Shown: positions 10,485 through 44,927 of the stretch, one piece after another
Position numbering within the stretch: the first letter of the stretch is position 1
How the letters are laid out: each line of letters starts with the position of its first letter
DNA from: a candidate division FCPU426 bacterium
GTDB lineage: Bacteria; Oederibacteriota; JAAXVQ01; JAUVAV01
Length of the DNA stretch: 64,000 bases
NCBI GenBank assembly: GCA_030637655.1
Contig: DAOWGI010000007.1
Coordinates: forward strand, 1-64,000
Direction of reading: 5' to 3'
Program-made: the position numbers and the translations under genes
The notes under the pieces: generated by a model
Database searches by the model: none
Told to the model about the DNA's origin: nothing
The model's input: only the letters and a program-made list of their open reading frames with translations

Positions 10485-10710
10485 GTTGCGTCCTTCCCAC
10501 TCATTTTTTCTTTATACTAGCAAATAAAAAGCTGTTTGTCCAACTCCCGCATAACTTCCGCATTCAGCGGATACCCCATCTCCTTCTACGCGCCGGCGCC
10601 TGGAATCCACACTCGTTTCGGCATGTCCGACTTCCATTCCGGCGATCATACCCAAAAAACGGGCACAGGCAAGGATCGCCCCTCCATTCCGGCCACAGTA
10701 CGCCGTGCTC

Positions 10711-11022
10711 CTACCTTCTCCCCAGCAGCCGGCCCACGCCTGCGCCCAACAACAGGGTCATAATACCTATCGGAATTAAACTGCTCGGTTCTTTCCAGCC
10801 GATCAGAATAGCAACCGGCGAAAGTATTAAAAATGCGAGCACAATGCCTTTGAATATCGGTTTCAGATTAAGGTTGGAGGTTGCAACCACAACGCCGGTT
10901 ACCACCCAAAAGCAAAACGCTGAGAGGTTTGCGTCCCATGAGAGTTTTTGCGCGATCATGGGTATTACATCAATGACACCCGCTCCAGCTCCGACTAATA
11001 TGCCTTTTACAATTTTTGTCAT
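10711..11022 (-). CDS. Small 4-TM hypothetical membrane protein
   Basis: AAGGAG RBS and four hydrophobic segments. Confidence 0.7.
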   Translation of the reverse strand: MTKIVKGILVGAGAGVIDVIPMIAQKLSWDANLSAFCFWVVTGVVVATSNLNLKPIFKGIVLAFLILSPVAILIGWKEPSSLIPIGIMTLLLGAGVGRLLGRR

Positions 11023-11053
11023 GTATTTTCTCCTTTACGCCCCTACTACATCA

Positions 11054-11124
11054 GGCGCACTCAGTGCGCCCCTACAGCGGGCGAACATATTCAAAAGACG
11101 GGCACAGGCAAGGTTCGCCTTTAC
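11054..11124 (-). repeat. Two REPs, the second interrupted by a 21-nt insert
   Basis: GGCGCACTCAGTGCGCCCCTAC, then GGGCGAACA[21 nt]CAAGGTTCGCCTTTAC. Confidence 0.8.
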
Positions 11125-11642
11125 GATTTTTTAAACAATTTTTCTGCCGGGCAGCCCAATTCACGCTGTCGGCAGTAACAGCAGGCCAAAGCACCCCGGA
11201 TGAATCCTTGGCCAGGAAAAGCCACGATCAGTAACCCAACCACCAGCATTAGCATGCTCCCCTTAAATTCCCAGAACATGAAAAAAATGCCAATAGCAAC
11301 CGGAACAAATACCACCAGCATATCCGGCAGCAAAGCCAGCCAACTGATTTCTCTGGCTGTGAATTTTTTCGGGTCCCCAGGTTTGAAAAACCAGGAACTG
11401 ACAACACCTTTTCCGGAAAAGCACAGCCTGCCAAAGTAGTAACAATGCACACAGCCGGTGGCCATTAACTTGAATTCCAGGGACAAACAAAAAGCCAGAT
11501 ATAACAACATGGCCCACAAATTGATTTGCAATATGATCGCAGCACCTAAGATATAAATGATTGCCGACAGTAAATTGGCCGCCACCACCACCCCGGCCGG
11601 ATAGTTTTCAAAGATTTGTTTTTTCGCCTGATCAGAACACAT
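11121..11642 (-). CDS. Cys-rich 4-TM hypothetical membrane protein
   Basis: AGGAGG RBS; CVHCYYFGRLC and CCYCRQRELGC motifs. Confidence 0.75.
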   Translation of the reverse strand: MCSDQAKKQIFENYPAGVVVAANLLSAIIYILGAAIILQINLWAMLLYLAFCLSLEFKLMATGCVHCYYFGRLCFSGKGVVSSWFFKPGDPKKFTAREISWLALLPDMLVVFVPVAIGIFFMFWEFKGSMLMLVVGLLIVAFPGQGFIRGALACCYCRQRELGCPAEKLFKKS

Positions 11643-11685
11643 ATAGTATTCCTCCTTGGAAGATCCGCCCCACCCCTAAAAACAT

Positions 11686-11817
11686 TCACCACAGAGGCAC
11701 AGAGATCACAGAGAAAAGCTAAAGCCAATTAAAGTTAAAAGCTTTAAATCATAAACAACAAAATTGTAAGTAATTACCTTAATTTTTTCCTCTGTGTGCT
11801 CTGTGCCTCTGTGGTGA
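11686..11817. repeat. CACCACAGAG-CACAGAG inverted repeat pair
   Basis: CACCACAGAGGCACAGAGATCACAGAG pairs with CTCTGTGTGCTCTGTGCCTCTGTGGTG. Family members occur at 13030, 15285-15312, 15523-15624 and 44858-44897. Confidence 0.8.
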
Positions 11818-11830
11818 ATCCTGCCGTCTC

Positions 11831-12997
11831 TCACTCCACTTCCGGTCTTAACAAACTCGCCCAGCGGACCGTATCATACCCATACCGCTCTCGTATCTGG
11901 TCTGCCGCGGTCTGCAGGTGCTCCATTTTCTTGTTGTCCTCCACATCCAAAAGCATACCTTGCTCTTTACCCTCCACTAGTTTTTGAGCAGCAAAGCCGA
12001 GCAAACGGATCCGCACGCGACAGGTAAGCACTTTATCTAATAGTTGTGTGCCGGCTTTAAAAAGCACGCGATCCATATCTGTTGCCGGATTTAGCGCTTT
12101 CGATTTCGTGTGCAAGGAAAAATCAGCATAGCGTATTTTTACGCAGGCAGTGCCGGCTTTAAGTCCATGTTTGCGCAGACGGTAGCCTACTTCGCAGACC
12201 AAACGGTGCAAAGCATGACGCAGAAATTTCGGATCGGTCGTATCCAGCATAAAAGTTTCTTCATGACTTATGGATTTGGCCTGCTCGCGCCGGACAACTT
12301 GTGAGTCATCTTTGCCTTGGGCTGCATCTTGCAGCCAATATCCCATGCTCCCCAGCACCTTGCCGACCAAAGCCCTCGGCAATTGGGCTAAGTCTCCAAT
12401 GCTCCGAATCCCCAAAGCACGCAAGCGTGGCTCGGTTTTGGGCCCGACGCCAAACAATTGGCGTATGGGCAGTGGTGCTAATAACGCTGCCTCATGCCCT
12501 GGCCGGACATATAATATGCCGGCCGGCTTGGCCATATCCGAAGCAATTTTGGAAACCACTTTGGCAGTGGAAATTCCAATACTCACATCCAGGCCAAGTT
12601 CTTTTTTAACCCTGGCCTGAATAGCGGTCGCTGCCACCAGAGGCGGGCCAAAGAGTTTCTCGCAGCCTGTGTATTCCAAATAGCCTTCATCCAAAGACGC
12701 CGGCTGCAAATTCGGCGAGTACTCTTCCAAAATGTCAAAAAAAGCACGGGAGTATTTTTCGTATTCCCGAAAATGTCCATGGCACACAATGACCTGCGGG
12801 CAGAGACGCTGCGCCTGCGCAAAGGGCATGGCTGAATGCACGCCGAATTTCCGCGCTTCATAGGACGCGGCGGACACCACGCTGCGGGCCGTGCCGGACG
12901 AAACGATTACAGGTTTACCGTAAAGTGCGGGGTCGAGCAGACGCTCGACCGCGACAAAGAAGGTATCGAGATCCAAATGGAAAACAGAACGAGGCAT
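11831..12997 (-). CDS. dinB: DNA polymerase IV (Y-family)
   Basis: HLDLDTFFVAVE, AASYEARKFGVHSAMP, SLDEGY and SKIASDMAKPAG. Confidence 0.95.
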   Translation of the reverse strand: MPRSVFHLDLDTFFVAVERLLDPALYGKPVIVSSGTARSVVSAASYEARKFGVHSAMPFAQAQRLCPQVIVCHGHFREYEKYSRAFFDILEEYSPNLQPASLDEGYLEYTGCEKLFGPPLVAATAIQARVKKELGLDVSIGISTAKVVSKIASDMAKPAGILYVRPGHEAALLAPLPIRQLFGVGPKTEPRLRALGIRSIGDLAQLPRALVGKVLGSMGYWLQDAAQGKDDSQVVRREQAKSISHEETFMLDTTDPKFLRHALHRLVCEVGYRLRKHGLKAGTACVKIRYADFSLHTKSKALNPATDMDRVLFKAGTQLLDKVLTCRVRIRLLGFAAQKLVEGKEQGMLLDVEDNKKMEHLQTAADQIRERYGYDTVRWASLLRPEVE

Positions 12998-13076
12998 GGG
13001 ACAACACCAGACTTTCGAAGTACAATTTTACCGCTGAGACGCGGAGACTACAAAGAACCGGGTATGATTAAATTCT

Positions 13077-14384
13077 TCAAAAACATTCGTCAGGAGATAA
13101 TAATTTCCAATTATTCGCTTTGTGCCAACAAAGTACCCTTTTAAAAAGACGTTCAAAAATAAGAACCCGATCATAGGGTCCTGTTTCCATAACACGCTCC
13201 AACGCATTAAATGACTCCAATTTTCCACAGAGCTCATCTGCATCTGGTTCACCAAGAGAGCATGACAAATACGGTTCACAGGTTATAAGCAGCCAATATT
13301 CATTCAAATTACGCGGACGTGATTTCTGCATCTTTTTGGTTCTCGCTAAAAACTCTGTCATATTCTGTTCATGCAAGCCCAACCAAGCGGCACTTGCAAT
13401 ATTCCAACTAATATAATGACAGTCTGTTTTCCGAATAATACTTTTGCGCAAATATTTTTTTAAACATTCATACGGTTCAAATCTATTGAATATTTGCTCA
13501 TTCGCAAGTTTTTCCGCCTTTTTATCTGTAAATTCCAACAATTCATTCACAAATTTATCTCTTTCAGACTTATTCACAACTTTATTTAAAAAAACACTAC
13601 AAGAAACGGAATTAAGAGCCGGCTTCGATTTTCTTGCCTTTTCAATTTCACCAAACAAGTTTAACTTTTCCGCCTCATCACGCCTTAAGTTCTCATCCCG
13701 GCAAAATTCCGTTAATTCAATTGCCACACGGCTGTCCCTTGCCACACCCATGAATTCAATGGGCAAACAAACATAAAAATCAGGCGGATCGTCGCCGCGT
13801 TCAATTCTTGCGCCCATGTCCAAACCAAACCAATTGAAAAAATTGTTTATTTGTTCTCTCTCGATGCGTTCTTGTTTTGAGTAATCACCTATAACATCCT
13901 CCACTTCAAGAACTCGAAACAACTTCATTCTGACTTCCTGAGTAATATTCTTTTTCCCTTTCTCAATCGCTGATATATCCGGCTGCCTCATCTTTGCCTG
14001 CTGAGCAAGATCTTTCTGAGTCCATCCTTTCTTTCTCCGCGCACCTTGAATTATTTTACCAAGCGTTTGAAATTCTGGTGGCGGGACACCTTTTATCGGC
14101 TTATCGGCTCCACGAATTTTCCCAACTTGCTCATACACCGTCTCCCACCAATCACGAAAATCCATCGCCTGCCCAATACGATTCCATTCCTTACGGATAA
14201 TTGGCCAAACCTCAACAAACTGTTTCTGATTGATCAGTCCAAAAATTTCTTTGCTCTTGTCACAACGAGACAACAAAGTAACCATACGGCGGACAAATTT
14301 CGGGTGTGCGGGATTACGTAATATTTTCTCCGTCTCCGCCAACGCTGCTTCTGACAGATCCCAAAAATACGGTTTGACATTCAT
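13077..14384 (-). CDS. AbiE-associated XRE-HTH regulator/antitoxin fused to a putative PD-(D/E)xK-like C-terminal domain
   Basis: YFWD N-terminus; HTH (WTQKDLAQQAKMRQPDISAIEKG); later DDPPDF...AIELTE. ATGA-coupled to the AbiEii gene. Confidence 0.6.
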   Translation of the reverse strand: MNVKPYFWDLSEAALAETEKILRNPAHPKFVRRMVTLLSRCDKSKEIFGLINQKQFVEVWPIIRKEWNRIGQAMDFRDWWETVYEQVGKIRGADKPIKGVPPPEFQTLGKIIQGARRKKGWTQKDLAQQAKMRQPDISAIEKGKKNITQEVRMKLFRVLEVEDVIGDYSKQERIEREQINNFFNWFGLDMGARIERGDDPPDFYVCLPIEFMGVARDSRVAIELTEFCRDENLRRDEAEKLNLFGEIEKARKSKPALNSVSCSVFLNKVVNKSERDKFVNELLEFTDKKAEKLANEQIFNRFEPYECLKKYLRKSIIRKTDCHYISWNIASAAWLGLHEQNMTEFLARTKKMQKSRPRNLNEYWLLITCEPYLSCSLGEPDADELCGKLESFNALERVMETGPYDRVLIFERLFKRVLCWHKANNWKLLSPDECF

Positions 14385-15103
14385 TCCACTTCTCCGGCAA
14401 CAAAAGTAGTAATTTCCTCTTCAAGATGCTTAATAATCTCCCGGCTATCCAACTTTTCGTCATATACCTCAAGATCTAAATACGCCAATTTAAACTCTTG
14501 CCGAGAAAACCGCCTGTACCAACTCACTATCCCACGCTGTTGAACATTTGACACGTCGGATAAAAAAGTGTTTAGCGGCTGTATTTTTTTCGATAAATAG
14601 TAAAGATCAACCGCGTCTCTGGACTCATTTCTCCCGCCAAGGGTTGTGTAGCGTCCGGTTTCATCTGTTGTTTGCTGAACACCTGATACAGTCGTTATTT
14701 TCATTCGGTAAATCTGTCTTGCGTCGTATACAGGAACCTTATTTACCCGTTTGATGCGTGGTTTTGTTGTCTGATTATCCTCCACAAAATCCAGCTTGAG
14801 CGGCGTTGCTGTTCCTTTTATTTTCAACGTGTAAAACCGCACCCGAGCCTGCCCCGAAATCCTCAATTCATTTTCCAGAACCGGCATTGTGCCGTATTCT
14901 TTCTTTATTTCATCTGCAATCGTATTGATTTCCCTCTGGTTATAGCGTGACGAAAAAAAATCCAAATCCCGGGAAAAACGGTGATTTAAATAATATATCT
15001 CCAAGGCCGTCCCTCCAGCCAAAGCAAAGCTTCCCGGCTTTCGGGAAAATATTTTCAATATGTCAAATTGAGCTTGCCTTAGTTTCTTATCCATAGTAAA
15101 CAA
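14381..15103 (-). CDS. AbiEii/AbiGii-family nucleotidyltransferase toxin
   Basis: FALAGGTALEIYYLNHRFSRDLDFF, MK and RDAVDLY motifs. The start may be ATG 15094. Confidence 0.88.
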   Translation of the reverse strand: MFTMDKKLRQAQFDILKIFSRKPGSFALAGGTALEIYYLNHRFSRDLDFFSSRYNQREINTIADEIKKEYGTMPVLENELRISGQARVRFYTLKIKGTATPLKLDFVEDNQTTKPRIKRVNKVPVYDARQIYRMKITTVSGVQQTTDETGRYTTLGGRNESRDAVDLYYLSKKIQPLNTFLSDVSNVQQRGIVSWYRRFSRQEFKLAYLDLEVYDEKLDSREIIKHLEEEITTFVAGEVE

Positions 15104-15110
15104 AACACCT

Positions 15111-15170
15111 CTATATTAAATATAGATTATAAACTATATTCAATATAGCTTATAATCTATATTTTGTCAA
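15111..15170 (-). promoter_or_regulatory. Sigma70 promoter with tandem palindromic operators
   Basis: TTGACA (15165-70), 17 bp, TATATT (15142-47). CTATATT-N-AATATAG at 15111-25 and 15134-48, half-site at 15157. Confidence 0.7.
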
Positions 15171-15330
15171 TGGTGATCAGCGTTCCCCTCCGCCGCACAC
15201 CCAAAAACGGACACGCAGAAAAATAAATGATACAAAAACAAAAAACAACACGAATGCCTTTTATGCTTCCAACCCTAATCTTTCCTCTGCGCACTCTGCA
15301 CCTCAGCGGTGAGCATTACCGTTCGAATCC

Positions 15331-15495
15331 TCACCACAAGGACAAAGTAATGGTCTTACGATTCTTATGATCCGCTTTTTTCTTGACCTGCTGTAAACGC
15401 TGAGGATGCCTATCCTTATTACGTTTCCGGTTTACCCCTTTGATCACTGTAACTCCATATTGTTTCTCATCAATGTCCATGGATAACTGTGTCAT
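15331..15495 (-). CDS. Unannotated 54-aa basic small protein downstream of lexA
   Basis: AAGGAGGTG RBS 6 nt before ATG; MTQLSMDIDEKQYGVTVIKGVNRKRNKDRHPQRLQQVKKKADHKNRKTITLSLW. Confidence 0.6.
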   Translation of the reverse strand: MTQLSMDIDEKQYGVTVIKGVNRKRNKDRHPQRLQQVKKKADHKNRKTITLSLW

Positions 15496-15627
15496 GTCAC
15501 ACACCTCCTTAAGAATCGTTATTCACCGCATACCCAAAAAGCGGGCACAGGGAGACTCGGAGAACTCGGAGAAATCCTTATTTGCATTTATTTTATCTCT
15601 GCGTGCTCTGCGTCTCCGCGGTGAACA

Positions 15628-16239
15628 CTACCGCCTTTGCATTTTTCTCAGCACTCCAATCACGATTCCCTGAATCTGCAAGTCTCCTTCAGTGACATAA
15701 ATTGGCTGCATGCCGGCATTGGCCGGTTGGAGACGAACCCGGCCGGCCTCGCGATACAAACGTTTGACCGTGGCTTCATTATTAATAAGTGCCACTACAA
15801 TCTCGCCATTTTGCGCCTGCGAGCGTTTTTCTACAATAATTTGGTCTCCATCCAAGATGTGATCTTCAATCATAGAATCGCCCTTAACCTGCAAAACAAA
15901 GGTCTCGTTTTTGCCCAGCATGTCTTCGGGCAAGACTACACTCTCCGGCTGCTCCAAGGCCTCAATCGGCGCTCCGGCAGCAACCAGTCCCAACAAAGGC
16001 ACCTCCAAAGCGCGCGAGCCACTCTCTTCGCACTCACTCAGTTTCACACAGCGCGCCCTGTTTTCTTCGCGTCTGAGCATTCCCTTTGCTTCCAAGGTCT
16101 TCAAATGTTTATGCACTGTGGCCACAGAAGAAAGTCCGAAATGCTCTCCAATCTCCCGTAGGGTGGGTGCATATCTACAGGTTTTGATATACCCTTGGAC
16201 AAAATCAAGAATCTCTTTTTGTTTTCTGGTAAGTGCCAT
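15628..16239 (-). CDS. lexA: SOS repressor LexA
   Basis: LTRKQKEILDF..APTLREI..SVATVHKHL, VAAG cleavage site, GDSM and ATVKR catalytic dyad. Confidence 0.96.
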   Translation of the reverse strand: MALTRKQKEILDFVQGYIKTCRYAPTLREIGEHFGLSSVATVHKHLKTLEAKGMLRREENRARCVKLSECEESGSRALEVPLLGLVAAGAPIEALEQPESVVLPEDMLGKNETFVLQVKGDSMIEDHILDGDQIIVEKRSQAQNGEIVVALINNEATVKRLYREAGRVRLQPANAGMQPIYVTEGDLQIQGIVIGVLRKMQRR

Positions 16240-16277
16240 GACGTGACTCCTTCGGGGTTAGCCCCAATCTTTTTTTC

Positions 16278-16333
16278 GGGCGGACACAGGGGTCCGCCCC
16301 TACGGTTTTCGGGCGTACTCAGTACGCCCCTAC
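16278..16333 (-). repeat. Two tandem GTAG-REPs
   Basis: GGGCGGACACAGGGGTCCGCCCCTAC and GGGCGTACTCAGTACGCCCCTAC. Confidence 0.85.
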
Positions 16334-16401
16334 AAGAGAGAGTGAGGTATGGTAGTTGGTGTCGCACCCTCTCCCTGTAAGGCGAAAAAGAGGGGGGGCG
16401 T

Positions 16402-16869
16402 CTACTTCTTTTCCGCCAAGACAAACTCTGCCTTGCAACACGCCTGCTCAGCCTCAAAAAATACGATCTCTTGCTGCTGTTTCCAAGAAAGTATTTCCGG
16501 CCTCATATGAATCGTTCCAGACTGCAGTCTGGCTTGCAAAAGATGTTGCCTGGATGTTAAAAACCGCAAACGCTGCTGGGCCGGCGGATTCGCACGGTCA
16601 ACCGGGTATGCGGCTAACAACTCAAAATCCGTCTGTTTCGCATGCAAATGCCGGTGTCTGCGCAAGGCAGCAGATGAACGCCGGCTGGTAAATACGGCAC
16701 GATAAATCTTTGCCCATAAAGAATGTAGAAAAAATTTTACGGGAAGCACCAGATGCCTGTGAAATTCAGCATTAAGTTCTTCGAGGACCTGCGCGGGGCT
16801 TTCCCCCTCACGCCTGCAAGTGGTTAAAAAAAGAGCAATAAGTGTTGGATCTGAATTGCCGAAAAACAT
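16402..16869 (-). CDS. Hypothetical protein, first gene of the putative lexA operon
   Basis: AAAGGAGG RBS; 155 aa; no family recognised. Confidence 0.6.
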   Translation of the reverse strand: MFFGNSDPTLIALFLTTCRREGESPAQVLEELNAEFHRHLVLPVKFFLHSLWAKIYRAVFTSRRSSAALRRHRHLHAKQTDFELLAAYPVDRANPPAQQRLRFLTSRQHLLQARLQSGTIHMRPEILSWKQQQEIVFFEAEQACCKAEFVLAEKK

Positions 16870-16896
16870 CTGGATTGCCTCCTTTGGATTTTTTCC

Positions 16897-16967
16897 GTAG
16901 GGGCGGGTTTTCGACCGAAGGGAGTCCCTTTCCTTTTGATCATCCGATCGGGGAAACCCGCCCCTAC
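16897..16967. repeat. Composite REP: GTAGGGGCGGGTTT...AAACCCGCCCCTAC with an ACCGAAGGGAGTCCCT-containing insert
   Basis: Homologous in inverted orientation to 47940-48007. Confidence 0.8.
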
Positions 16968-17047
16968 ATTATTTACCTCACCTTTTGCAAAAACGAATCC
17001 GCCTGGTCTGGACCGATGCAGACAACTCAAAACTCGTCTTGAAAAGG

Positions 17048-17174
17048 CGAACAAAAAACGAAACTTGGTCTTAAAAAATTTTTAGGACAAACCCTTTGCT
17101 ACTCTTACTCACTTTCCACATCATGTTTACCATTTGTTCGCTTTTATGTCAAGGTTATTTTCGCTTTTTTTTCG
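17048..17174 (-). promoter_or_regulatory. lexA-operon promoter and candidate LexA boxes
   Basis: TTGACA (17147-52), 17 bp, TAAACA (17124-29). Direct repeats with an 11-bp period at 17048-63, 17125-40 and 17160-74. Confidence 0.6.
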
Positions 17175-37300: not shown

Positions 37301-39268
37301 TAGGCTTTTGCCCTTCACATCCCGGGAAATGCTTTTTACCAGAATACCGTCTTTGTAAACGCGTTCCTCAATTGATTTTCTTGGAAATCCAATGGAATTA
37401 TAACGTCCTATTTTCTTGGGTTGTTCATATTTATTATACCCGGTGTTCGAATAGCCCTTTTCATCCACCGCCAAGGTCCTGACCATGCGGCCCTTGGCAT
37501 AGGCATGCGCACTCACAGTTACACGGCCCCATTTGTTCATGACAATGTTTGTCGCCGGTTTGCCAAACACATTGTAATGAGTCTCACTTACAGAATCCGG
37601 TCCCACCTCTTTGCTGTAGACCATGGTGCCACCCACATACTGATAATCCGTAATGGTTTGTTTGCCATTGTGCTTGGTAAAAATTGTCTGCAACGGTTGG
37701 TCGCTCTTGCCGTCACGCATGGTGGTCATGCGCACACCAAAGGCTTCCTGGGTATAGGAGACCCGGCGGCCAACAGCATCCGTCCCGCAGGCTGTGGTCT
37801 CAACCACACCATTATTTAATACTTTAACTTTTTTCGTCGACAATTCGGTTTTAGGATCATGCCAGGTATACAGAGTACTACGATGATTAATGGTGATGGC
37901 AAGGAGCAGCTTGTCACTCTGGTCATATTCATAGAGAGTGGTTTCGTACTCATTAATACTGCTGGTTTTATTGCCTTCGGCATTATAGGTAAACTCGGTC
38001 CGCAATCCATGTGCATCGCTCTTGGCAATTACCTGGCCTTCAATATTATACTCTTTCCTGATGGTTTGAGTATAAGTCTGAAAACCAATGGTGAGGGTAA
38101 TCGTCTCAGTAGAGTAAATGATATTTCCTTTTTCGTCGACCACATAACTGATCTTGACCTTTTTGCCGGCTTCTTCGATACCAATAATTCTTCCGCTCTT
38201 GTCATAATGCGTTACTTTGTGCTTGGGTTTAAAAGAACCATCCGTGCTCCGAACGTCTTCAATCCTGGAGAGAATGCGGCCATCTCTATCCAGCACGTAC
38301 TGATAAGTGTATTCGCCATCTTTGCCGACCTTTTTCCGGATCCGGCCCGATTCATCAAAATATTTCGTAGTTACATCTTCAATTGTGCCGCCGCGGGAAG
38401 GCGAAATTTTCCTCTCTTTTTTACTGATCAGAACACCTTTATTATCCACGACGTTTTCATGCACGGTGCGAATACCGTTTTCAATAACTTCAACCAGTTG
38501 ACCGCCTTTATACCGTTTCTCTTTCCGATTGCCTTGGCTATCCTCTTCAATGCTGGCAATCATTTCGCCATTGTCATCTTTGATGGTAGTAATATCGGTC
38601 CGCACACCATTCTGATCAATCTTGGCAATGATTGCTCCGGTCTTCGGATCCATCATCACGCGGCTGCTCTTGCCGGTATTCATCTCACGCTCGATGTAGC
38701 TGATGGTTTTGCCTTTTTCATTTTTTACATAGTTTCTGAAAAATTTGGTGCCCTGCGGGTTGCTGGACTGGACAATATTGCCTTTGGCATCGTAGTGTTT
38801 GGTTTCAGTGCCCTGCTTGCCGGTTTTCACGGTTTTGCGTAATTTTCCATCCGCATTTTTGAAATATTTGGTCTGTGAAATGATTTCGCCGGCAGCGCTC
38901 TTTTCCATCACCGGCCTGCCGTTTTCATAAATAATGACCTTGCCATCCGGTTTAATGACTTCTTTGAGTTTGCCGTCGCCGTCATACTTGCGGACTTCAC
39001 CGGAGAAAAATTTAATGGTGACCACAACTCCTGCGTCCCCACTCTCGACGACTGTGCTGGCTTTGATCTTAATGCCCTGTTCTTTGAGTTTCTGGATGAT
39101 GTTAGGTAAAAGTTTGTCAGATATCTCCGCCGAGGACATAGTTGCCCCTGCAAATAATAGCAGCGTACCTAACAAGGCAAGGGTTCCTAACCAATTTGTC
39201 TTTTTCATGAGACCAAATCTCCCCCGGACGTTTTTAATATCGAGTTGACTTGAAATTTTTGCAGTCAT
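25379..39268 (-). CDS. Giant (4629 aa) secreted beta-repeat protein: YD/RHS-like ends plus about 39 x 54-aa central repeats
   Basis: Uninterrupted 13.9-kb ORF; AGGAGG RBS; signal peptide (KK..LGTLALLGTLLLFAGATMSSA); YDxxG repeats; 162-bp periodicity. Confidence 0.9.
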   Translation of the reverse strand: MTAKISSQLDIKNVRGRFGLMKKTNWLGTLALLGTLLLFAGATMSSAEISDKLLPNIIQKLKEQGIKIKASTVVESGDAGVVVTIKFFSGEVRKYDGDGKLKEVIKPDGKVIIYENGRPVMEKSAAGEIISQTKYFKNADGKLRKTVKTGKQGTETKHYDAKGNIVQSSNPQGTKFFRNYVKNEKGKTISYIEREMNTGKSSRVMMDPKTGAIIAKIDQNGVRTDITTIKDDNGEMIASIEEDSQGNRKEKRYKGGQLVEVIENGIRTVHENVVDNKGVLISKKERKISPSRGGTIEDVTTKYFDESGRIRKKVGKDGEYTYQYVLDRDGRILSRIEDVRSTDGSFKPKHKVTHYDKSGRIIGIEEAGKKVKISYVVDEKGNIIYSTETITLTIGFQTYTQTIRKEYNIEGQVIAKSDAHGLRTEFTYNAEGNKTSSINEYETTLYEYDQSDKLLLAITINHRSTLYTWHDPKTELSTKKVKVLNNGVVETTACGTDAVGRRVSYTQEAFGVRMTTMRDGKSDQPLQTIFTKHNGKQTITDYQYVGGTMVYSKEVGPDSVSETHYNVFGKPATNIVMNKWGRVTVSAHAYAKGRMVRTLAVDEKGYSNTGYNKYEQPKKIGRYNSIGFPRKSIEERVYKDGILVKSISRDVKGKSLTTYDENEQVEVVHRINLHGFPRQNWVTNIYNASGELIESYQIDSRGFTENTFSENGLMSLSVRKDIYGFPKVKITTYTYARGELVESRVDDERGFTINEFDIDGLMRVSTREKYFGYPRQEVSSYEYNADGYMVWSDTTDENGYTQNWYNIDELVTVSFRENKYGHARQQWTINEYDGEGFMTLSKQTDLKGCSINTYNRDALALANMRYDNYSVIYSRDTITFNEYDSKGFITVAKSKNIMTNIKKEFDKDSLCVLQNQMDNFGIYNVRSKMTASYVYDAHGRMQTNIAKDIMGTTYSRFDIHGDAVWSRQFANMGAELSRISTTESAYEADTGMTLWSFAKTVLNETLTIHNDDNYALPGKTYTKNYRGAEMGRETETTIKGNIYHGLTEKTFAKNDLNKTTTWHSQDTFGLPEKSFTHNSFGAEWSRDTMTWIDSNRYDGMTDKTLSKNRLNYSITVHHQDAWRLPAMSYAHNFYGAEFGRDSITVINTNKQDGMTDETFAMNKLNWTKTTHTQDEWRLPRHSESWGFRGALLGRHTLTDIETDKQDGMTNKTFSTNGLNEATTWHADDEWRLPMKSFAKNYFGANKSRETTTSIETNRLDGMTDKTVAVNDLSTTTTYNAHDQWRLPWLSKNHNNYGAIFGRDNLTLLASDHEDGMTDASFAMNKLSWTLTEYSQDKWRMPEASKSWSFRGALLARVSKAQITTNKVDGITDMVVSENGLSRTTTINRQDEWRLPGLSKTENFRGAELGRLTWTIIDCNEDDGINDETLARNELNWNRTEYAQDEYRLSKWSESYNYRGAEFGRYTTTDITSNIFDGMTDETFARNKLSHTQTNYSQDQWRMSEMSQNWTFRGALMRRHTITDITCSHLDGMTNRTMAKNALSKTITWHKQDNWRLPWLSKTKNEKGAEYGRLTISSITANQQDGMTDSTFAMNKLTFTKTTHSQDKWRLPQEALTWSFRGALLGRFTHTDITANHQDGMTDESFAKNSLTWTKTTHSQDEWRMPSATETRSFRGALMGRHTVGEIQCNHEDGMTDVSISENGLNKTTTIHAQNEWRLPWISRSENEFGAELGRDTTTFITSNKLDGMTDETFAKNELNWSKTKHSSDQWRMPYKSETLGFRGALMGRYTYTQIQSNHNDGMTDVTSSKNLLSKTTTYHSQDEWRAPELSKTENFYGAELGRSTLTAMFTDHEDGMTNQTVTLSGLNLVITNHAQDEWRLPEDSRTFSWQGALKGRYTEATIDSNEQDGMTNETFAVNGLSETRTVHSQDEWRMPIKSYVHNYYGAEMGRDAETDITSNHSDGMTDMTVSVNELSTTTTWHSSNEWRLPYGSKNVNNFGANFGRETQTLIDSNKMDGMTDETLAWNNLNITKTVYSTDQWRMPKSSESRSWRGALLSWYTKTEITANHVDGMTDMTVSETGLAKTTTWHNKDEWRLPGLSKTENNFGAELGRLSWTTINTNTEDGMTDDTWALSGLSLTHSMHSSDEFRLPKATESWNFRGALLSRYSHTDIWSNEDDGMSDFTLAKTALSNVQTVYSQDKWRMAEESHTWNFKGALGSRYTHTEIDTNHIDGMTDNTVAENDLNRTTTLHASDEWRLPYASFSETFRGAELGRDTLTIIDANKQDGMTDKTLGVNSLNWTRTVHGTDEYRLPEESVTKSFRGAYYGRLTYTDITASKNDGMTNETLAINGLNKIKTVHSRDEWRMAEYSETTGFRGALLGRVTDTDISSNHYDGMTDKTIAENGLNTVVTIHAQDEWRMPTKSQTFNKLGANLGRFTVTDIFTDKMDGMTTASFAVNQLNWTSTVHSIDEFRLPDYSESLSFRGALDGRYTYTDITANLDDGMTDKTVAETGLVTTTTWHSADEWRMPVCSSMKNKKGANYGRDTLTAIENSHVDGMTDSTFATSKLNTLLTIYAQDEYRMAKESYSTNFRGALGGRLTHTLITNNQDDGMSNKTHAYNWLNNVRTVYSQDQWRMPEKSYTESYRGAELGRKTETDIFCNRYDGMTNITVAENSLNTTMTIHNDDEYRLPGQSITLSYRGALRGRLSNSVINSNEDDGMTDSTLVTSDLSTIKTVYSQDEWRMPASTLAYSFLGAKLGRWTTTEMIANKFDGMNEKTVATSVLNKTTTYHAMDEWRLPVASITENNKGALDSRYTTTQIIANKQDGMTDESWAFNDLSVKHTMHSADEYRLPDESETWNFKGAELSRYTYTDTQTSIYDGMTNKSISENGLSKTTTWHTSDNLRLPYLSKTENNRGAEYGRVTWTDIHCDEDDGMTNWTFGESGLNKTWTFHHTDDNLRLPDWSRSYNKRGATAARWVTTKITANARDGMSDKTVATSGINEVTTKYASDEWRLAYESITQNFYGAGGAKKTTTELHNDHVDGMTNYTIARNDLSYTRTNYSQDQYRMPKSTYTKNYRGVVYGRVTHGLMQVDHNTGLNKASYNISKLSESWTYYDDNGFQTHGWSKSHPAITLPYARLTYNEYHMRKDLGTMLYSKGTNQLGVTESRYNADGFMSWSCNLAAYGSVKKTITTYQTNNWTGLNKTSNATSYSRKPGWTNQWISKAKAYYDGNGINHKTKTTKRTGAKWGRNSTTYTVNDQNTGTKKSSTTISKLSKVETLADNFGIDTWSKATNYVGTHHSRVSTEWSKYNPKNGIKTSSYSESIASKTYSWFDANGLPRSKGNMYQKRWNKYSSSEAGRVEHVYCGDVNFDGAAGMTRSVNPISTTDSYTSWKGFTEKSITGNKYGAAGDELSVTHYEPNENTGLNRTSWKYNKHKGRSWGRTFTSYGGGSRSRGFGRSLFAIFFPTSVYGVATYTKSWGCDNKGKEQDPTETWIKFNKNTGLTTSTYTKGTGSGNYKSWGTSFNSKTGWKLAGETHQDKAQGKDTIREKYRSTYQYNPYTGLMKKEVRKNIQHSKNKTIWYDAHGVESSSASADSSRPSGAMYTWTEYSGKETPHSQPTEAVKYYSGERFGEIMTVYQHDLTTANAGQTNLKYFPRWEEVELHYGQYVKFLTIHYTMSADGPVSANVTDDKGTEHWVMTGSGYGNANIISRSRVNNDGSTITWTYTDVPIFGYHREANITYTNLMGQYDGSGTESYSMRGILEKQVLNNTNGWDQTIYFENDGQYITTSIGFREDNVTVRYSHTGIGEIAMSSDDKGVTTWDPAENRMLSTQGLLGTFAYTYSGGAVARITGEVTAGGSVVMDKNWNVNTWTDTQGVVHSYTAASAQKGIWTSANESFTDANGTNWSGTMQYQRKGFYFESATLRATNADLNSSSADNTVQLDTQAAYTFIRKLILKYQTERETFSWGNDKCRTLGECKTVDFGSSDVIGVADVEVTIDEEGRSTSRFSDMKYFEKQFTKKYRFRPTYSTSSYTMIRKSEPSTGDYLNMSKYNDVFYNGTIGVKKRVTGSCRVQIGTKTETYYVKIIPDDPDTEANEYKRTTYSSQKYDAEGNPLYTKCTRQVPVYSTKWTIEKETWYKESDGWQWWPTSVTLEASYSDTLELDTGKLTAGPIGQSGDFTRSASNLRTYRTSARNMGGGVSLGDFLSNGGSYRFDSGSGGTSDVGDPDMGDIDVPDEMPDAPTGAGVQAAGVAESKTIAKPAAEEEGVTEEDEVVTAFNNIKNSDDMLAFLQLVASKMSSQAILAAWQNSAAANLMNGLAAAYNSLFGEAYQNSLLGKLITVATNYSSIVEELKTAIAGGTIISNEVKLAAKIARDLENAQSVKKDEKGHVIEVVDANGSTHKYQYEAKGFTEIMVDYKGHKETNYYNEDGQLLSQNLGNMSRTYSYVEEGRQVAKVTMVERSVNGSTVFEYDGLGRLTALDQGNQKSVYKYEGQSTNTYTVQILGPNGAKLEERSCKNGRLISKRGADGSSSEYSYMTDSVGNVLAVTAEVKDKDGGKTYLKYDGSGRLISAQGKEAEKYEQMAKDDGSLAEQAFVFGAEKDMFGDKRIDNMRLAPGILNGLFGE

Positions 39269-39346
39269 CTCGCTCCCTCCTTTTTAGAAAAACATTTTTT
39301 TACAAAAAATGCTCGATTTTTTTTTAAATTCCCACCTTTTGTTTGA

Positions 39347-39375
39347 AGTATATCACATAAAAATGGGCATTGCAA
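39347..39375 (-). promoter_or_regulatory. Sigma70 promoter of the giant gene
   Basis: TTGCAA, 17 bp, TATACT, with an extended -10 TG. Confidence 0.65.
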
Positions 39376-39734
39376 ATTCACCGGGTAAATAATGTCCTTT
39401 AAAACACGAGTTTTTCTAGAAAATATCGGCCTTACCCTCAATTGTAAATTTTTTTAGGTTTTTAGGATTTTTTTAAAAAACAGAAATAAATAAGTGTGCT
39501 GGACAACTGCAATTAGTTGCTCAGGCTCCTAGTTGTTGCTGATACTGAGTAGTGTGTGTGATCTAATCCGCCAGTCTGCGTGTTCCTCCATGACTATATG
39601 AAATTATGAATATGAAAAAAGATTCAGACTGGCAGCCTGATTTTTCGATGTTCGACGTGTCTGCTTTTTCGGAAGAAGATCACCTTTATGCATCTAAAAA
39701 ACACAAAATAATCCCAGCTGTTTTTTTTCATTCA

Positions 39735-40520
39735 TTAAATCTGATAGGCTTCAATTTTATAACCGCATTGCTTGCAAATACATTGGTTACCGTTGGCATC
39801 CAGGACAATATTTCGGCATATAGGACACATGAGTATTTCGTTTAATGATTTTTTTATTTTATGTTTTGCTGAGGTTGTTTTTTTTATAACGCGTTTAATC
39901 TCTTCTTTTTTTCTTATAATATCAGTTGAAGTCTTGTGATTTTTCTCATACTTTTGTCGAAGTTTATAGCTGGAATCCATTTCTTCCTGAAAATCGACAA
40001 AGCTGTCTGTTTTAATCTCAAAGGAAATCTCATTCTCCCATTCAAGGACTGTATAAAACCGGGCACGATGTCTTTTGAAAAACAATTTAAAAATGAAATC
40101 CGTTTTCAACAAATCATGAAATAATCCGCCCAGAGGATTCGACCATTTTTTAGGTGTAAATATCAACTTTCCGTTTTCGACGGAAAGCACCCAACGATGA
40201 AAACTCCAACCGAATATTATTTCGCCGGCCAGACTGGGTGATTCTATATAGCCCCGTTTCGCTACTCGCATCATCTCTTTTATTCCTTTTTCCGGATTTT
40301 CAAGATGCTCCACGACGTGGCGACAAATTATATAATCAAAAGCATGATCTCTAAAAGGAAGATTTTCAAGATCCGCCACAACCAAAGAGCGATCAATAAT
40401 AATTTGTCCGCCGCGTTCTGAATCACCCTGCATATATTTATCCACCAATACATCAGCTCGCGGATGCGGATTATCACCGCTCCCGATTTCTAAAACAATA
40501 TCCGAAGGTCTAATATTCAT
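39735..40520 (-). CDS. Class I SAM-dependent methyltransferase with C-terminal Cys cluster
   Basis: VLEIGSG, LPFRDHAFDYIICRHVVEH and CPIC..CICKQC. Start re-placed at MNIRP (GAGGAG RBS). Confidence 0.85.
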   Translation of the reverse strand: MNIRPSDIVLEIGSGDNPHPRADVLVDKYMQGDSERGGQIIIDRSLVVADLENLPFRDHAFDYIICRHVVEHLENPEKGIKEMMRVAKRGYIESPSLAGEIIFGWSFHRWVLSVENGKLIFTPKKWSNPLGGLFHDLLKTDFIFKLFFKRHRARFYTVLEWENEISFEIKTDSFVDFQEEMDSSYKLRQKYEKNHKTSTDIIRKKEEIKRVIKKTTSAKHKIKKSLNEILMCPICRNIVLDANGNQCICKQCGYKIEAYQI

Positions 40521-40546
40521 TTTCTCTCCTCGTATGTATTTACCCC

Positions 40547-41314
40547 TTACTCCTTCAAACAAAATATCACATTAAAATAACGCGGAACATTTGAGACGGT
40601 ACCCGTTACAATTGAATGGTTGTGTGCCCCGTCAACATTGGTACTTCCACTAACAACATGAGTATGATACTGTCCCGCTGCTTGCATATTGCTTCCCGAC
40701 CCTCGCGGAATATTAACGTACCCAATATTATTCTGAGAAGTAATATTTACACCATGCGAATGGCTCCCGGGAGAAGTTGTATTCCCCCCATGACTATGAC
40801 TATCTGCGCCGCCGGCATGTCCGCCCGAATAGGACGCTGCGCCACGGGGAAATAAGCCGTCGAGTTCGGTCAACCGCCGATAGCCAACCGGGCAGGTTGC
40901 GCCGGTCCACATAATAATCGCTCCCTTGGGTGTTCCATCCTTAGCTCTCATGGCATACGGCACACTCTGAAGCTGTTGCCGGGGTGACATAGGCCGGCTG
41001 TCACCGGCAACATGGACCTCCAAATAATAAGGGTAATCAAAGCTCAGACTGCTCATCGAAGTTTGGCTGCCCAACGCCATGTCAAAATATCCCCCTTGTG
41101 TGTTGATATTTTGCACCTCGCTCCATCCGGTAGGTGTGTTGCCGGTTGCTTGATAATACAACGTAAAAGTAACTCCATAGGTTCCATCAGCCACTGCATT
41201 TCCACTACCATCAGTCAGTCTTCCCTGGTAATTAATCGTACCCGGGATATCCGCCATGGCTATTTGCGAAAAAATTCCTGTTAATATTGCCATAATCATC
41301 ATGATTTTTTTCAT
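40547..41314 (-). CDS. Secreted phage tail-collar/short-tail-fibre-like protein
   Basis: Signal peptide; INYQGRLTD N-domain; PKGAIIMWTG.TCPVGY collar motif; four HxH motifs; NVPRYFNVIFC end. Confidence 0.75.
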   Translation of the reverse strand: MKKIMMIMAILTGIFSQIAMADIPGTINYQGRLTDGSGNAVADGTYGVTFTLYYQATGNTPTGWSEVQNINTQGGYFDMALGSQTSMSSLSFDYPYYLEVHVAGDSRPMSPRQQLQSVPYAMRAKDGTPKGAIIMWTGATCPVGYRRLTELDGLFPRGAASYSGGHAGGADSHSHGGNTTSPGSHSHGVNITSQNNIGYVNIPRGSGSNMQAAGQYHTHVVSGSTNVDGAHNHSIVTGTVSNVPRYFNVIFCLKE

Positions 41315-41529
41315 TTTTTCCGCCTCCTTTTTTGTACCTCAAGCAAAGATACTATGTTAAAAACCGCTTACCATTCCTTAACCATTAGCTTTTCTTTGCG
41401 CCCCTTGCCGGTCCTGCCGGTCCTTTGACGAACTTTTTCAATAGAGCGCAAAGGGCGACTTATCTGCTTAAACACCAAAGAGCGGGGCAGCTTGGCGTGA
41501 TACTCGTAGGGAACGCTCGCGAGCGTTCC

Positions 41530-42105
41530 CTACTTGACCAGGACGATTTTTTTCTTCACGATTGTGGTTCTGCCATCAGCCCCTTTGGCTTTCACCCGCA
41601 TGATATACACACCATTCGCCAGATTCGACATATTCCATCTCCAATAATTCTTTCCGGCAGGCTTCATATCCCAGCGCTTGGAAATCACCAGTTGGCTACT
41701 GGTGGTATAAACTTTGATCTCAATATCTGCGGCTCGAGCCAAATGGAAATAAATATGCGCGATAGACCCCCGGATAGGATTGGGCGCGGCATAGACCCAC
41801 TTCTTGGAAATTATTTCACCGTTAAATGTGCGGATTGGCGTACTGGTCACCGTAATGGTGGGTGTTACCGTTGGGGTCGGAGGCAATATAAAATATTCAT
41901 TGAAAAATCCTGTTTGAATAGAAAAACCCTCTCCCCAGGTCTGACCTATCACAGATTCTCCGACACTGTTGATGATATTTTTACCAGCGCCGGATATGGT
42001 CGTTCCCGAAGCATTCACTACAACCGGTTGCACAACATGCTCTGCCTGTGAATAATGTGAAAATAGCACTAACGATATAACCGTGACGAATAAAATCCGC
42101 CGCAT
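41530..42105 (-). CDS. Secreted protein with P/T linker and T9SS-type-A-like C-terminal domain
   Basis: Signal peptide; SVGE..IG..QTGF; PTPTVTPT; AAPNP..IKVYTTSSQLV..W..NLANGVYI..KKIVLVK. Confidence 0.75.
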   Translation of the reverse strand: MRRILFVTVISLVLFSHYSQAEHVVQPVVVNASGTTISGAGKNIINSVGESVIGQTWGEGFSIQTGFFNEYFILPPTPTVTPTITVTSTPIRTFNGEIISKKWVYAAPNPIRGSIAHIYFHLARAADIEIKVYTTSSQLVISKRWDMKPAGKNYWRWNMSNLANGVYIMRVKAKGADGRTTIVKKKIVLVK

Positions 42106-42440
42106 ATTTCATACCCCTCATTAAACTATTGATATTGCAGTAGCATTAACCATACCACCAAATAACACACTAAATAATCAACAATTGGAGCAAAACTACA
42201 AATATCATAGCATAGTCATCCTTGAATCGAACTATCTTTTTATAATTCCGTTTTATAATTCCGGGGCAATTGCTTTCGTGGGTCTCCGCTCCCAACAAGG
42301 TTCTCCGTGGAGAACGAAGATAAAACGATGGTCTTTACGTCATTGAATTACATCTTGGAAAAGCAATTCAGTAGTTGTGTGACTCATATTAAGTTTAAGG
42401 TTCAAATGCTTCGTAAGCTATCAGTTATGTTTCTTTTTTT

Positions 42441-42620
42441 GTCATCCCCGAATGCTTGTATCCCCGACAAGAGCATTCGAGGACGGATACGGTTTAAAAA
42501 ACCAGATTCCCGATTAAACCCTCGGGAATGACAATCTTTGTTTAACTGCGCAGTTCACTGACTTATTACCTGGTCGTGGGATGCGAAACCATATCCCCGA
42601 TAAAAACATTCGGGGATGAC
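42441..42620. repeat. Nested GTCATCCCCG/CGGGAATGAC palindromic repeats
   Basis: GTCATCCCCGAATG..., ATTCCCGATTAAACCCTCGGGAATGAC and TCCCCGATAAAAACATTCGGGGATGAC. Confidence 0.6.
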
Positions 42621-42794
42621 AAAAAAAGAAAACAACCATAATTCCTACAAATCATTTTATTTTCAATGCTAATGCTTATTTCGCCAATAGAAAATTACCC
42701 ACAGATTCTGCTGAAGAGGCAAATTCAAATTTGAAAGTAAATAAGTATGCTGGAAAACCAGGATTCTGTCTTGTGCTCTCCAGGTCGGGAAGTG

Positions 42795-43304
42795 TTATTT
42801 CCGGGCGTTTCTCTTTTTTATAGGTGTGAGCACTTCGATCAGAGCAACAGCATAGGCAGCCAATCCCTCATTACGGCCGATAGCACCCAACCCTTCATTG
42901 GTAGTTGCTTTGACGGAAACTTGCTCTGCTTTAATTCCCAAAGCCCGAGCTATCCGCCGACACATCACCGGAACCTGGCGGGAAATTTTGGGTGCCTCGG
43001 CCAGCAGCATACAATCAATATTGCTTGGTGAGCAATGATGCCGGTCCAGCTGTTTTTTTACCTCAGCCAGAAATTCCAAAGAATTCCGATTACGCTGGCG
43101 CTGTGACGTATTGGGAAAGAGCCTCCCTATATCTCCTAAACCGGCTGCCCCCAACAAGGCATCACAGATAGCATGACAAATAACATCCGCATCCGAATGC
43201 CCTCTCAACTGAAACCCAGCCTGCGGAAACGCCACCCCTCCCAGGCGCAGCTTTTTTCCAGGCATGGTTTGGTGCACATCATAGCCCAAGCCAATACGAA
43301 TCAT
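42795..43304 (-). CDS. ispF: MECDP synthase
   Basis: RIGLGYDVH, GHSDADV, LGDIG and VKATTNEGLG. Confidence 0.96.
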   Translation of the reverse strand: MIRIGLGYDVHQTMPGKKLRLGGVAFPQAGFQLRGHSDADVICHAICDALLGAAGLGDIGRLFPNTSQRQRNRNSLEFLAEVKKQLDRHHCSPSNIDCMLLAEAPKISRQVPVMCRRIARALGIKAEQVSVKATTNEGLGAIGRNEGLAAYAVALIEVLTPIKKRNARK

Positions 43305-43324
43305 AACCAGCCATCCACCCTTGG

Positions 43325-44023
43325 TTAATGTCCTTGTGTTTCAAGTAATATCTCTGCCAATTCCAGGTCATAGGGTTTGGTGATCTTAAAATTATTCACT
43401 TCACCCTCCACGACTTCAACCGGTTTTTCTAAATATTCCACCAGTCCGGCATCATCCGTGGCAGTCAGCTTTTTCTTCCAGGCATTCTGGTAGGCCGCTC
43501 TTAATACTGAATATTGAAACCCTTGCGGTGTTTGAATGGCCACCATACTGCGCCGATCCACAGTTGTAGATACCATGTTTTTTTCATCCACCCGTTTGAG
43601 TGTATCGACCAAGGTAATCCCCGGTACCGCGGCCCCGGAATTTTGAGCTGCGGTAATCACGCGTTGAATCAGGGCAGGTGAACAAAAAGGACGCGCAGCA
43701 TCATGAATCAAAACAATCTCTGTGTCTGCGTCCAAGCAATCCATTCCGCAGCGAACTGAATCCTGACGCCGGACACCACCGCAAATCACCTCTTTTACTT
43801 TTGCCTCCGGACAGGTCTTCTCACAACTATTTTTAGCGCGTTCCACTTCGCCGGAGGGAACCACCAAAATACAACTTGCTATGCTTTCCATAGTAGCAAA
43901 AGTTTTCAAAACATGCTGAAAAAGAGGATATCCACCCAACCTAAGAAATGCTTTAGGCGTGATGTCACTCATTCGCCGGCCTTGCCCACCGGCCACTAAA
44001 ATGACTTCTGTCTTGATTGCCAT
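43325..44023 (-). CDS. ispD: MEP cytidylyltransferase
   Basis: AGGQGRRM, RQDSV, HDAARP, QTPQ, TDD and KITKPYD. Confidence 0.95.
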   Translation of the reverse strand: MAIKTEVILVAGGQGRRMSDITPKAFLRLGGYPLFQHVLKTFATMESIASCILVVPSGEVERAKNSCEKTCPEAKVKEVICGGVRRQDSVRCGMDCLDADTEIVLIHDAARPFCSPALIQRVITAAQNSGAAVPGITLVDTLKRVDEKNMVSTTVDRRSMVAIQTPQGFQYSVLRAAYQNAWKKKLTATDDAGLVEYLEKPVEVVEGEVNNFKITKPYDLELAEILLETQGH

Positions 44024-44787
44024 CAGCCTTGGCCTGTGCTCTTGCGTTTGGCAAAAACCATACGTCCGGCTGCGGTTTGCAAAACCGAAGTAACACCGAC
44101 CACCTGCTTCTGATTCAGCAACTGGCGTCCGTTTTCTACGACCACCATGGTTCCATCCTCAAGATACCCCACCCCTTGGCCCGGTTCCTTGCCTTCCTTA
44201 ACAATCCGAATCATCATCTCTTCTCCGGGCAGCACTACTGTCTTTACCGCATTGCTCAAATCATTGATATTGAGCACCGGGATGCCTTGCAGACCGGCAA
44301 CTTTATTCAAATTTATATCATTGGTCACTAATTTTCCCTTAAGACGTTTGGTCAAGCGTAATAATTTTTCATCCACTACCGGCACATCTGGAAAATCTTG
44401 GTTGCTAATCTGTACTTTCAGGCCGGGATTTTTTTTCAGATCAGCTAAGGTATTCAAACCACGGCGTCCCCGATTGCGTTTGAGCTCATCCGTCGAATCA
44501 GAAATTCGTTGCAATTCGCGCAACACAAAAACCGGAACAATGAAACTGCCTTCTAAAAATTTAGTTTTACATATGTCCGCAATGCGGCCGTCAATAATCA
44601 CCGAGGTATCCAGTACTTTATAGCCGCAAACCGTGTTTCCTGACCACCAATACTCCAGTCCAGCCAGACCAACAGCTACTAAGCCGCCCAGCACAGCGCC
44701 TATTCCAGAGAACGGCAGAAATTTATAACCCAGCAAAAGGAATGATATAATAAATAAAACCCTGATAAAAACGGAAAAAATATTCAC
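44023..44787 (-). CDS. PIN/TRAM domain membrane protein (YacL-like, short N-terminus)
   Basis: [23 protein letters not shown] and [19 protein letters not shown] start after AAGGAG. Confidence 0.9.
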
Positions 44788-44927
44788 CGCTTGCTCCTTT
44801 CTTCTGTCACTGTAATACTGTAGAGACGCGATTAATCGCGTCTCTACATAGAACAATCCATGTGTCTCCTTGTGCCCGTTTTTTGGGTATGTGGTGAATA
44901 TACCTTTTTGGTTCCGGCTTGTCCGGG

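Follow-up and report, generated by a model that had tools for sequence, protein, structure and literature searches.

A 21-nucleotide hairpin unit with exact ends inside unrelated repeat families of a candidate division FCPU426 bacterium: a candidate for one of the smallest mobile DNA units

This study focused on a 21-nucleotide (nt) sequence, here called E, that recurs in the genome of a candidate division FCPU426 bacterium. It was noticed in a window of 64,000 nt, namely positions 1-64000 of contig C56 (DAOWGI010000007.1 in GenBank assembly GCA_030637655.1), the assembly comprising 3.28 Mb in 120 contigs at 45% G+C. E proved to be a discrete, exact-ended unit lying inside other repeat families, as an earlier reading of the letters alone (the sequence-only reading) had claimed. 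The preferred explanation, to which we give a probability of roughly 60%, is that E is a gene-less insertion module that was placed exactly into unrelated sequences and now spreads mostly as a passenger of the repeats enclosing it, here called its shells. As such, it may rank among the smallest mobile DNA units.

The unit reads TACCC-RAA-NNN-CGGGCAC-NNG and is laid out as a 5-bp stem, a 7-nt loop and a 4-nt tail. The window holds the following full and partial copies, in or near repetitive extragenic palindromes (REPs) and elements resembling miniature inverted-repeat transposable elements (MITEs); the A1 type is described further below.

10649-10669, plus strand: copy TACCCAAAAAACGGGCACAGG, no mismatches, in the loop of the REP hairpin GGCGATCA-E-CAAGGATCGCC, shell at about 10641-10681
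11088-11108, plus strand: copy starting TATTC, 3 mismatches, in the REP loop GGGCGAACA-E-CAAGGTTCGCC, flanked by two minus-strand genes
15531-15551, plus strand: copy with 1 mismatch, in one arm of a 105-nt palindromic MITE-like element at 15524-15628 (TTCACCGCA-E-GAGACTCGGAG), the other arm of which (about 15596-15625) is without E
44869-44889, minus strand: copy with 1 mismatch, in an A1-type half element (TTCACCACA-E-GAGACACATGG) followed by a GTAGAGACGCGATTAATCGCGTCTCTAC REP
8876-8887, plus strand: half unit, the first 12 nt of E (TACCCGAAAGAC), between two REP 5' arms GGGCGAACA, directly downstream of a gene at 8918-9544 (minus strand) that resembles a REP-associated tyrosine transposase (RAYT)
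about 15198-15218, plus strand: decayed copy, lacking one base and altered at several positions, behind CCGCCGCA, read directly

All four full copies named in the sequence-only reading were found where it had placed them, and 100 dinucleotide-preserving shuffles of the window yielded no match. Its two partial copies are also real, but of differing kinds, one being a half unit and the other a decayed copy that the window scan at up to 3 mismatches missed. The half-unit arrangement recurs in contig C112, on the left flank of the E copy at C112:12349.

A Hamming scan of the whole genome gave 85 matches to E at up to 5 mismatches, while a regular expression gave 59, one of which (C26:8367) was discarded as chance, leaving 58 copies. 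Positions 1-2, 5, 14-18 and 21 are invariant in all 58; the variable positions are 9-11, in the middle of the loop, and 19-20.

The ends of the unit were examined by cutting out 20, 21 or 22 nt at offsets from -3 to +3 and seeking the joined 8+8 flank elsewhere in the genome. With 21 nt removed at offset 0, the exact flank recurred for 36 of the 58 copies (284 matches), while the same length shifted to offset -1 or +1 restored only 11 and 6, and cuts of 20 or 22 nt at any offset restored 0-3. With 9+9 flanks and up to 1 mismatch, 47 of 58 were restored, lengths of 19, 20, 22 and 23 giving at most 5. This single peak means that the unit is exactly 21 nt long, that the ends drawn in the sequence-only reading are correct and that a target duplication is absent; the outermost bases of E are never repeated in its flanks. 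Among the window copies, exact 8+8 matches numbered 4 for 10649, 28 for 11088 (4 of them within the window, at 8889, 9160, 9211 and 9557), 0 for 15531 and 3 for 44869. Empty homologues of the filled sites, which had been predicted, are thus plentiful: of nine junction types written out, seven have empty forms, the largest tallies being as follows (the slash marks the point of insertion, and palindromic junctions were counted twice).

A1 junction CACCRCA/RAGRC: 71 empty, 21 filled
A2 junction CACCACAA/AGG: 31 empty, 7 filled
REP-GAACA junction GGCGAACA/CAAGRTT: 29 empty, 10 filled

The shells of the 58 copies were sorted by ourselves into 24 of REP type, 24 of A1 type and 10 of A2 type. In the REP class, E occupies the dyad centre of hairpins of the GTAG/CTAC type, and the stems beside it are of at least nine kinds (GAACA, GATCA, GATTCA, CAATTCA, GATTCG, GTTTTG, GGTTAA, GACGTTG and GGCCGACA); about 534 short-loop REPs were counted in a hairpin census of the genome. 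A1 is a MITE-like palindromic family with arms of tandem 9-mers CGCAGAGNA, in which E always stands behind CGCA, and A2 is a sister family made of CACAAAGGA units. Copies of E are intergenic, with only 14 of 58 in open frames of at least 150 codons against 46-55 of 58 for random places. By our count, the genome holds about 15 contexts at the level of E itself.

Several arrangements within the palindromes speak for insertion. E is confined to one arm at C11:1696, as it is at window position 15531; both arms of one element carry E at different 9-mer units (C8:25641 and 25717); and in C110 two successive units each carry it. Self-nesting points the same way. At three places in an Anaerolineae-labelled genome (G100), E lies within E, between bases 7 and 8, and one of these nests is five deep, a single whole E being enclosed by four prefixes and four suffixes. 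Such matching numbers are expected of repeated insertion into the loop of the latest unit, and are not predicted by slippage. No nested E was found in the FCPU426 genome.

Within the phylum, the strict E pattern was matched 51 times in this genome, and among its relatives only in G002 (2 matches) and in G006 and G009 (1 each; same family), with none in the other 95 genomes; a reversed-pattern control in this genome gave 0. The single copies of G006 and G009, two species of one genus, stand at the identical place behind a gene, and one of the G002 copies has a matching empty site 60 nt away. Orthologous sites in the nearest genomes, which belong to other genera, gave no empty counterpart for the copy at 11088: G010 has a different REP there and G001 could not be aligned.

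E is also present far outside this phylum. A scan of one genome per species returned at least 115 stretches, most of them single matches in G+C-rich genes, as chance predicts, but among the matches listed at least about 30 are clearly E in other phyla. Five distant genomes, labelled Nitrospirae, Anaerolineae, Chromatiaceae, Polarisedimenticolaceae and unclassified, are rich in it (16, 52, 16, 20 and 12 copies; control 0), each with its own dominant loop variant. The Nitrospirae-labelled genome has 16 copies, while among 30 of its relatives 4 have 1-2 copies and 26 have none. The shells in other phyla comprise the loops of GTCATTCCGG...CCGGAATGAC hairpins, a GTAG REP in a Sulfuricellaceae genome, GTCATCCTGAGCG-AGCGAA/E/GGATC repeats, heptamer arrays in the Anaerolineae-labelled genome and a 70-nt repeat in a Polarisedimenticolaceae genome; in one heptamer array (L179), and likewise in L010, an empty and a filled site are immediate neighbors. 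In other genomes, several copies are found within about 100 bases of a contig end. Four stretches of viral contigs match E, one of them with two copies; E is rare there and not mainly phage-borne. A query of three E units in array found no match among 72,556 plasmids, a form of query that single copies with another loop escape.

Head-to-tail arrays of 2-5 E units are found directly downstream of the single-stranded DNA-binding protein gene ssb in Beta- and Gammaproteobacteria, at 21-bp spacing, and E also stands in frame in the SSB linker, where it reads TQxAGTS. The sequence-only reading had pointed to the codon-multiple length of the unit, and this in-frame seat bears it out. The contigs concerned were the following, and across them 1-5 units were counted downstream of ssb.

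Thiobacillus-like: L207, L209, L210, L215-L218, L221, L082, L021
Gammaproteobacteria: L019, L121, L211, L220

The number of units in these arrays differs between related contigs, and the place downstream of ssb may be either a kept site or a repeated target. The ssb gene of the FCPU426 genome (window 53305-53733, minus strand) has no E nearby.

Several results weigh against placement of E on its own account. Contigs of four metagenome runs were aligned to window positions 8000-16500; cover was poor at the E sites, with contigs often ending in E. Two of the four runs, both from the probable source study, agree with the window, while a third, X6, represents a more distant strain that differs at two E sites, and at both of them a contig skips the whole shell: 10631-10680 (50 nt, the whole REP with E) and 15524-15628 (105 nt, the whole palindrome with E). 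In the four runs, no contig skips the 21 nt alone at 10649, 11088 or 15531, poor as their cover was at these places. Since only whole-shell differences were seen, it is the shell that demonstrably comes and goes. In addition, the E variant tracks the shell family within each genome, which together with the skipped shells indicates that most copies are passengers and that events at the level of E have been few. The target has no fixed short word. A search of metagenome contigs at JGI for the nested pattern gave 0 matches. As DNA on its own, E folds weakly, at -1.2 (plus strand) and -1.9 kcal/mol (minus strand), no better than shuffles.

The 50-nt block absent from X6 is bounded by an 11-of-12 direct repeat (cttccattccgg / cctccattccgg, within 10631-10692), which is either a 12-bp duplication made when the REP entered or the trace of a deletion between short repeats.

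The whole-shell differences and the tracking of E variants with shells would suit an alternative in which E is immobile by itself: a conserved functional hairpin, either a protein-binding site or an RNA element, carried by several repeat families as a long-loop variant, spreading only with its shells and now and then transferred to another shell through recombination or a template switch at the tips of hairpins. The copy kept at one place in both G006 and G009 favors this, as do the arrays kept at 21-bp spacing behind ssb in many Thiobacillus-like and gammaproteobacterial contigs. REPs with long-loop variants have been published, and GTAG families in which short loops coexist with long ones of up to 27 bp are described in PMC3733652. 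However, the ends of E are exact across several phyla and no fewer than 15 unrelated contexts, and recombination is hard to credit with this because the stems beside E differ. The five-deep nest and the palindromes with E in one arm only look like insertion, and E is in frame in the ssb of some genomes but intergenic in others. Nor does its orientation to neighboring genes show an overall bias (downstream 23 versus 20, upstream 23 versus 18), the REP class leaning one way (17 versus 5) on few independent events. Rfam gave no match in the window at gathering scores, and at E-values up to 1 in 8800-15700 there was none on E, only long palindromes matching microRNA models. A purely functional hairpin is accordingly regarded as unlikely.

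Insertion with later passenger spread remains the preferred explanation. The unit itself, its boundaries, the empty sites, the many contexts, the self-nesting and the distribution across phyla are established; placement by an enzyme is inferred. E would be placed, with exact ends and without target duplication, into many unrelated sequences, preferably at single-stranded hairpin tips (the loops of REPs, loops resembling the SRM repeats discussed below, and its own loop) and at short tandem 7- to 9-mers. After entering a shell of the REP or MITE-like kind, it would mostly be copied along as a passenger when that shell spreads. The placement itself would be a cut-and-join reaction on single-stranded DNA, driven by an enzyme acting in trans.

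Among named enzymes, the HUH/Y1 type (RAYT or IS200) is the first candidate, although the odds are long. Such an enzyme, of the RAYT or IS200/IS605 TnpA type, would recognize a CYTG foot and the hairpin, cut both ends of E and join without duplication. The absence of duplication fits this, as do the conserved stem and free loop of the hairpin and the 4-nt tail on its 5' side. The sequence-only reading had described the opposite strand as CCTG followed by a hairpin; more generally it is CYTG, the foot being CCTG or CTTG in all 58 copies (positions 19-21 plus the flank), and on the strand of the GTAG foot of the REP, E reads CYTG + TGCCC-N7-GGGTA. The two feet share a strand in most REP contexts with a single foot, the exceptions being C69:2419 and C112:12002. 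Position 16 is C here and T in some other genomes, a change that keeps a pair (G-T or A-T) on the foot strand only, the plus strand having an A-C mismatch. REP and E together fold better than shuffles on this foot (minus) strand, with a z of -2.2 versus -1.1 on the plus strand, the E hairpin stacking on the REP stem and the CTTGCCT foot bulging out. The position of the half unit next to the RAYT-like gene of the window also speaks for such an enzyme.

Against a Y1 enzyme stand the variable target tetranucleotide and the single hairpin, in place of two different ends. The bases before E were said in the sequence-only reading to be CA at each full copy. This is so for all four in the window, but it is not a rule: genome-wide CA precedes 45 of 58 copies, with AA at 8, TG at 2 and TA, AG and CG at 1 each, and in other phyla GA, AA, CC, TT or AC is found. 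An A stands immediately before E in 54 of 58. We know of no HUH-moved unit as small as E. A RAYT or TnpA gene flanked by E, as envisaged in the sequence-only reading, was not found: none of 28 Y1_Tnp loci (6 in this genome and 22 in the five other E-rich genomes) has E on both sides within 1.5 kb, and at two of them E is 1.3-1.4 kb away. Genes of this family occur in all six E-rich genomes, but also in 6 of 14 control genomes, and are weak support for that reason. The nearest candidate for a single-strand transposase in the window is the gene beside the half unit, which has no full E copies on its flanks.

8918-9544, minus strand: RAYT-like gene matching Y1_Tnp weakly, 20 bits alone and 25.2 bits (E-value 0.0014) with neighbors in frame

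This gene holds in-frame segments derived from REPs (9154-9232), and its translation includes GEHKVRPY, which is how the REP reads as protein. The locus is possibly a transposase gene into which its own repeats have moved.

Still less probable are spread through an RNA copy and reverse transcription, which has reportedly been proposed for certain cyanobacterial repeats treated below, and the action of a small hairpin-specific GIY-YIG nuclease of the Ssn type, the cuts being repaired with E. Small GIY-YIG genes (open frames of 71-120 codons) are present in all six E-rich genomes, and in other phyla E sits in the loops of GTCATTCCGG...CCGGAATGAC hairpins, which resemble Ssn-related motifs as given in PMC11893778. 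The family is, however, also present in 13 of 14 control genomes, E lies within 1.5 kb of only 1 of 24 GIY-YIG loci, and a nuclease alone does not explain exact joins. The one such neighborhood among the 24 is at C86:16475-18947, where two small GIY-YIG genes (93 and 103 codons open) stand 1.3 kb apart and a REP with E is about 700 bp from one of them. A search for any recurrent gene family near E (1201 frames within 3 kb in this genome and 31 loci elsewhere) returned only two-component signaling proteins, which are widely shared and were taken as chance. No enzyme that moves E was found in the Y1, GIY-YIG and neighbor-gene searches, and this too counts against enzyme-driven placement.

The closest described kind of element is the small dispersed repeats (SDRs) of the Nostocaceae, to which E is likened by description and not by sequence. 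These are said to be embedded in tandem heptamers and mini-transposons, to be self-nested and to share a hairpin. E likewise lies in MITE-like palindromes of 9-mers and in heptamer arrays, and it is self-nested in the three G100 nests only. The SDRs of Nostoc punctiforme and relatives were reportedly the subject of Elhai et al. 2008 (Genome Res 18:1484). Their size range of about 21-27 nt with many dispersed copies takes in E, which has 58 copies here and 12-52 in the five distant genomes. SDRs are described as repeats of some 20 bp that occur both dispersed and in tandem and may be mobile (PMC2884548). One of them, SDR5, has entered the HIP1 octamer precisely between its bases 3 and 4 (PMC4390886), and SDR1-8 of N. 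punctiforme and relatives are treated in citing papers (PMC5861425, PMC3116915). E shares with them the size class of about 20 nt, the dispersed and tandem occurrence and the precise insertion into another short repeat, mobility being suspected and no enzyme known for either. E differs in that it belongs to a non-cyanobacterial candidate phylum and is nearly unchanged in at least four other phylum-level groups. Having the SDR features that were tested, it is regarded as their relative in kind outside the cyanobacteria.

Other known systems are more remote. Transposition of IS200/IS605 elements proceeds through single strands, depends on hairpins and makes no target duplication; the elements have one orientation and two different ends with subterminal hairpins, and insert 3' of a fixed word of 4-5 nt. 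E is also without duplication, has a hairpin and a single orientation, but it has one hairpin in 21 nt and a mere preference for a preceding A. MITEs have terminal inverted repeats, a target duplication and a length of 50-500 bp, in contrast to the 21 nt and lack of duplication of E. Like REPs and REPINs as described in PMC3733652 and PMC3116915, E is a short, intergenic, multi-copy hairpin with a 4-nt tag 5' of the stem and is tolerated in frame. Its tag, however, is CYTG and not GTAG, and its stem of 5 bp, including one G-T or A-C position, falls short of the 6-13 bp of REPs, which are palindromes of 20-40 bp. E also sits inside REPs and not alone beside genes, and no RAYT gene is flanked by it.

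Ssn nucleases with their NTS/SRM hairpin repeats are described in Chenal et al. 2025 (PMC11893778) as recognizing single strands, with repeat cores shared across phyla. E resembles those repeats in its conserved hairpin core, its occurrence in many phyla, often inside other repeats, and its directionality, but differs from the SRM consensus HGTCWY...RNCYNB given there in lacking a GTC head, and its association with GIY-YIG genes is confined to the single locus already mentioned. With Rickettsia palindromic elements and in-frame REPs, as cited by PMC3733652, it shares a length and an absence of stops that allow an in-frame seat, here in the linker of ssb; those, though, are 100-150 bp or whole REPs, whereas E is 21 nt and intergenic in this genome.

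Since 2008, very small dispersed repeats have remained a puzzling feature of a single cyanobacterial family. Conservation of the E sequence extends from a candidate phylum to Proteobacteria, Chloroflexi and Nitrospirae-labelled genomes. With about 18 conserved bases that can serve both as a probe for co-occurrence and as a substrate for cleavage, the question of what moves 20-base DNA becomes testable. It is tentatively suggested, at less than even odds, that E is truly mobile and the smallest unit known to be so, conserved across at least five phylum-level groups through a horizontally spread single-strand strand-transferase that aims at hairpin tips and slipped repeats. If so, it would be a parasite of other selfish repeats that is able to enter genes in frame. 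For annotation, E alters the hairpins of REPs and MITEs, breaks assemblies and adds seven-residue repeats to proteins such as SSB.

Descent of E from a stretch of rRNA was considered and dropped, as an rRNA gene was sought in the assembly and none was found. Four 10-mers of E, sought in the literature, gave only chance matches in primers.

The hairpin census also revealed two other, longer loop modules enclosed by REP shells. The second module is of 43-50 nt and of the CCCCGACCGGA...GGGATTCCCTTCGGT type, in REP shells GTAGGGGCG...CGCCCCTAC. The third is of 30-36 nt and of the CTTGTC-CGGCGAAGC...GCGAAGACG type; like E, it starts with CTTGT on the strand where the REP loop reads CTTGT. Their places are as follows.

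Second module: window 16902-16969; C61:4035, C90:6437, C118:26296, C36:9312, C47:38284, C117:6753, C43:65538
Third module: C1:27425, C82:3082, C102:1300, C27:25490, C39:58012, C27:16467, C90:22865, C39:9680, C76:3266, C80:10766

A long palindrome of 136 nt lies between two genes of the window at 11684-11822 and draws spurious matches to microRNA precursors in Rfam. With a summed contig depth of 230-750-fold in the four metagenome runs, it is a very abundant foldback repeat. Lastly, at C4:40869-41835, dapB stands between two A1-type half elements in inverted orientation, both carrying an inward E and a GTAGAGACGCGATTAATCGCGTCTCTAC REP, so that this housekeeping gene looks like the cargo of a composite element.

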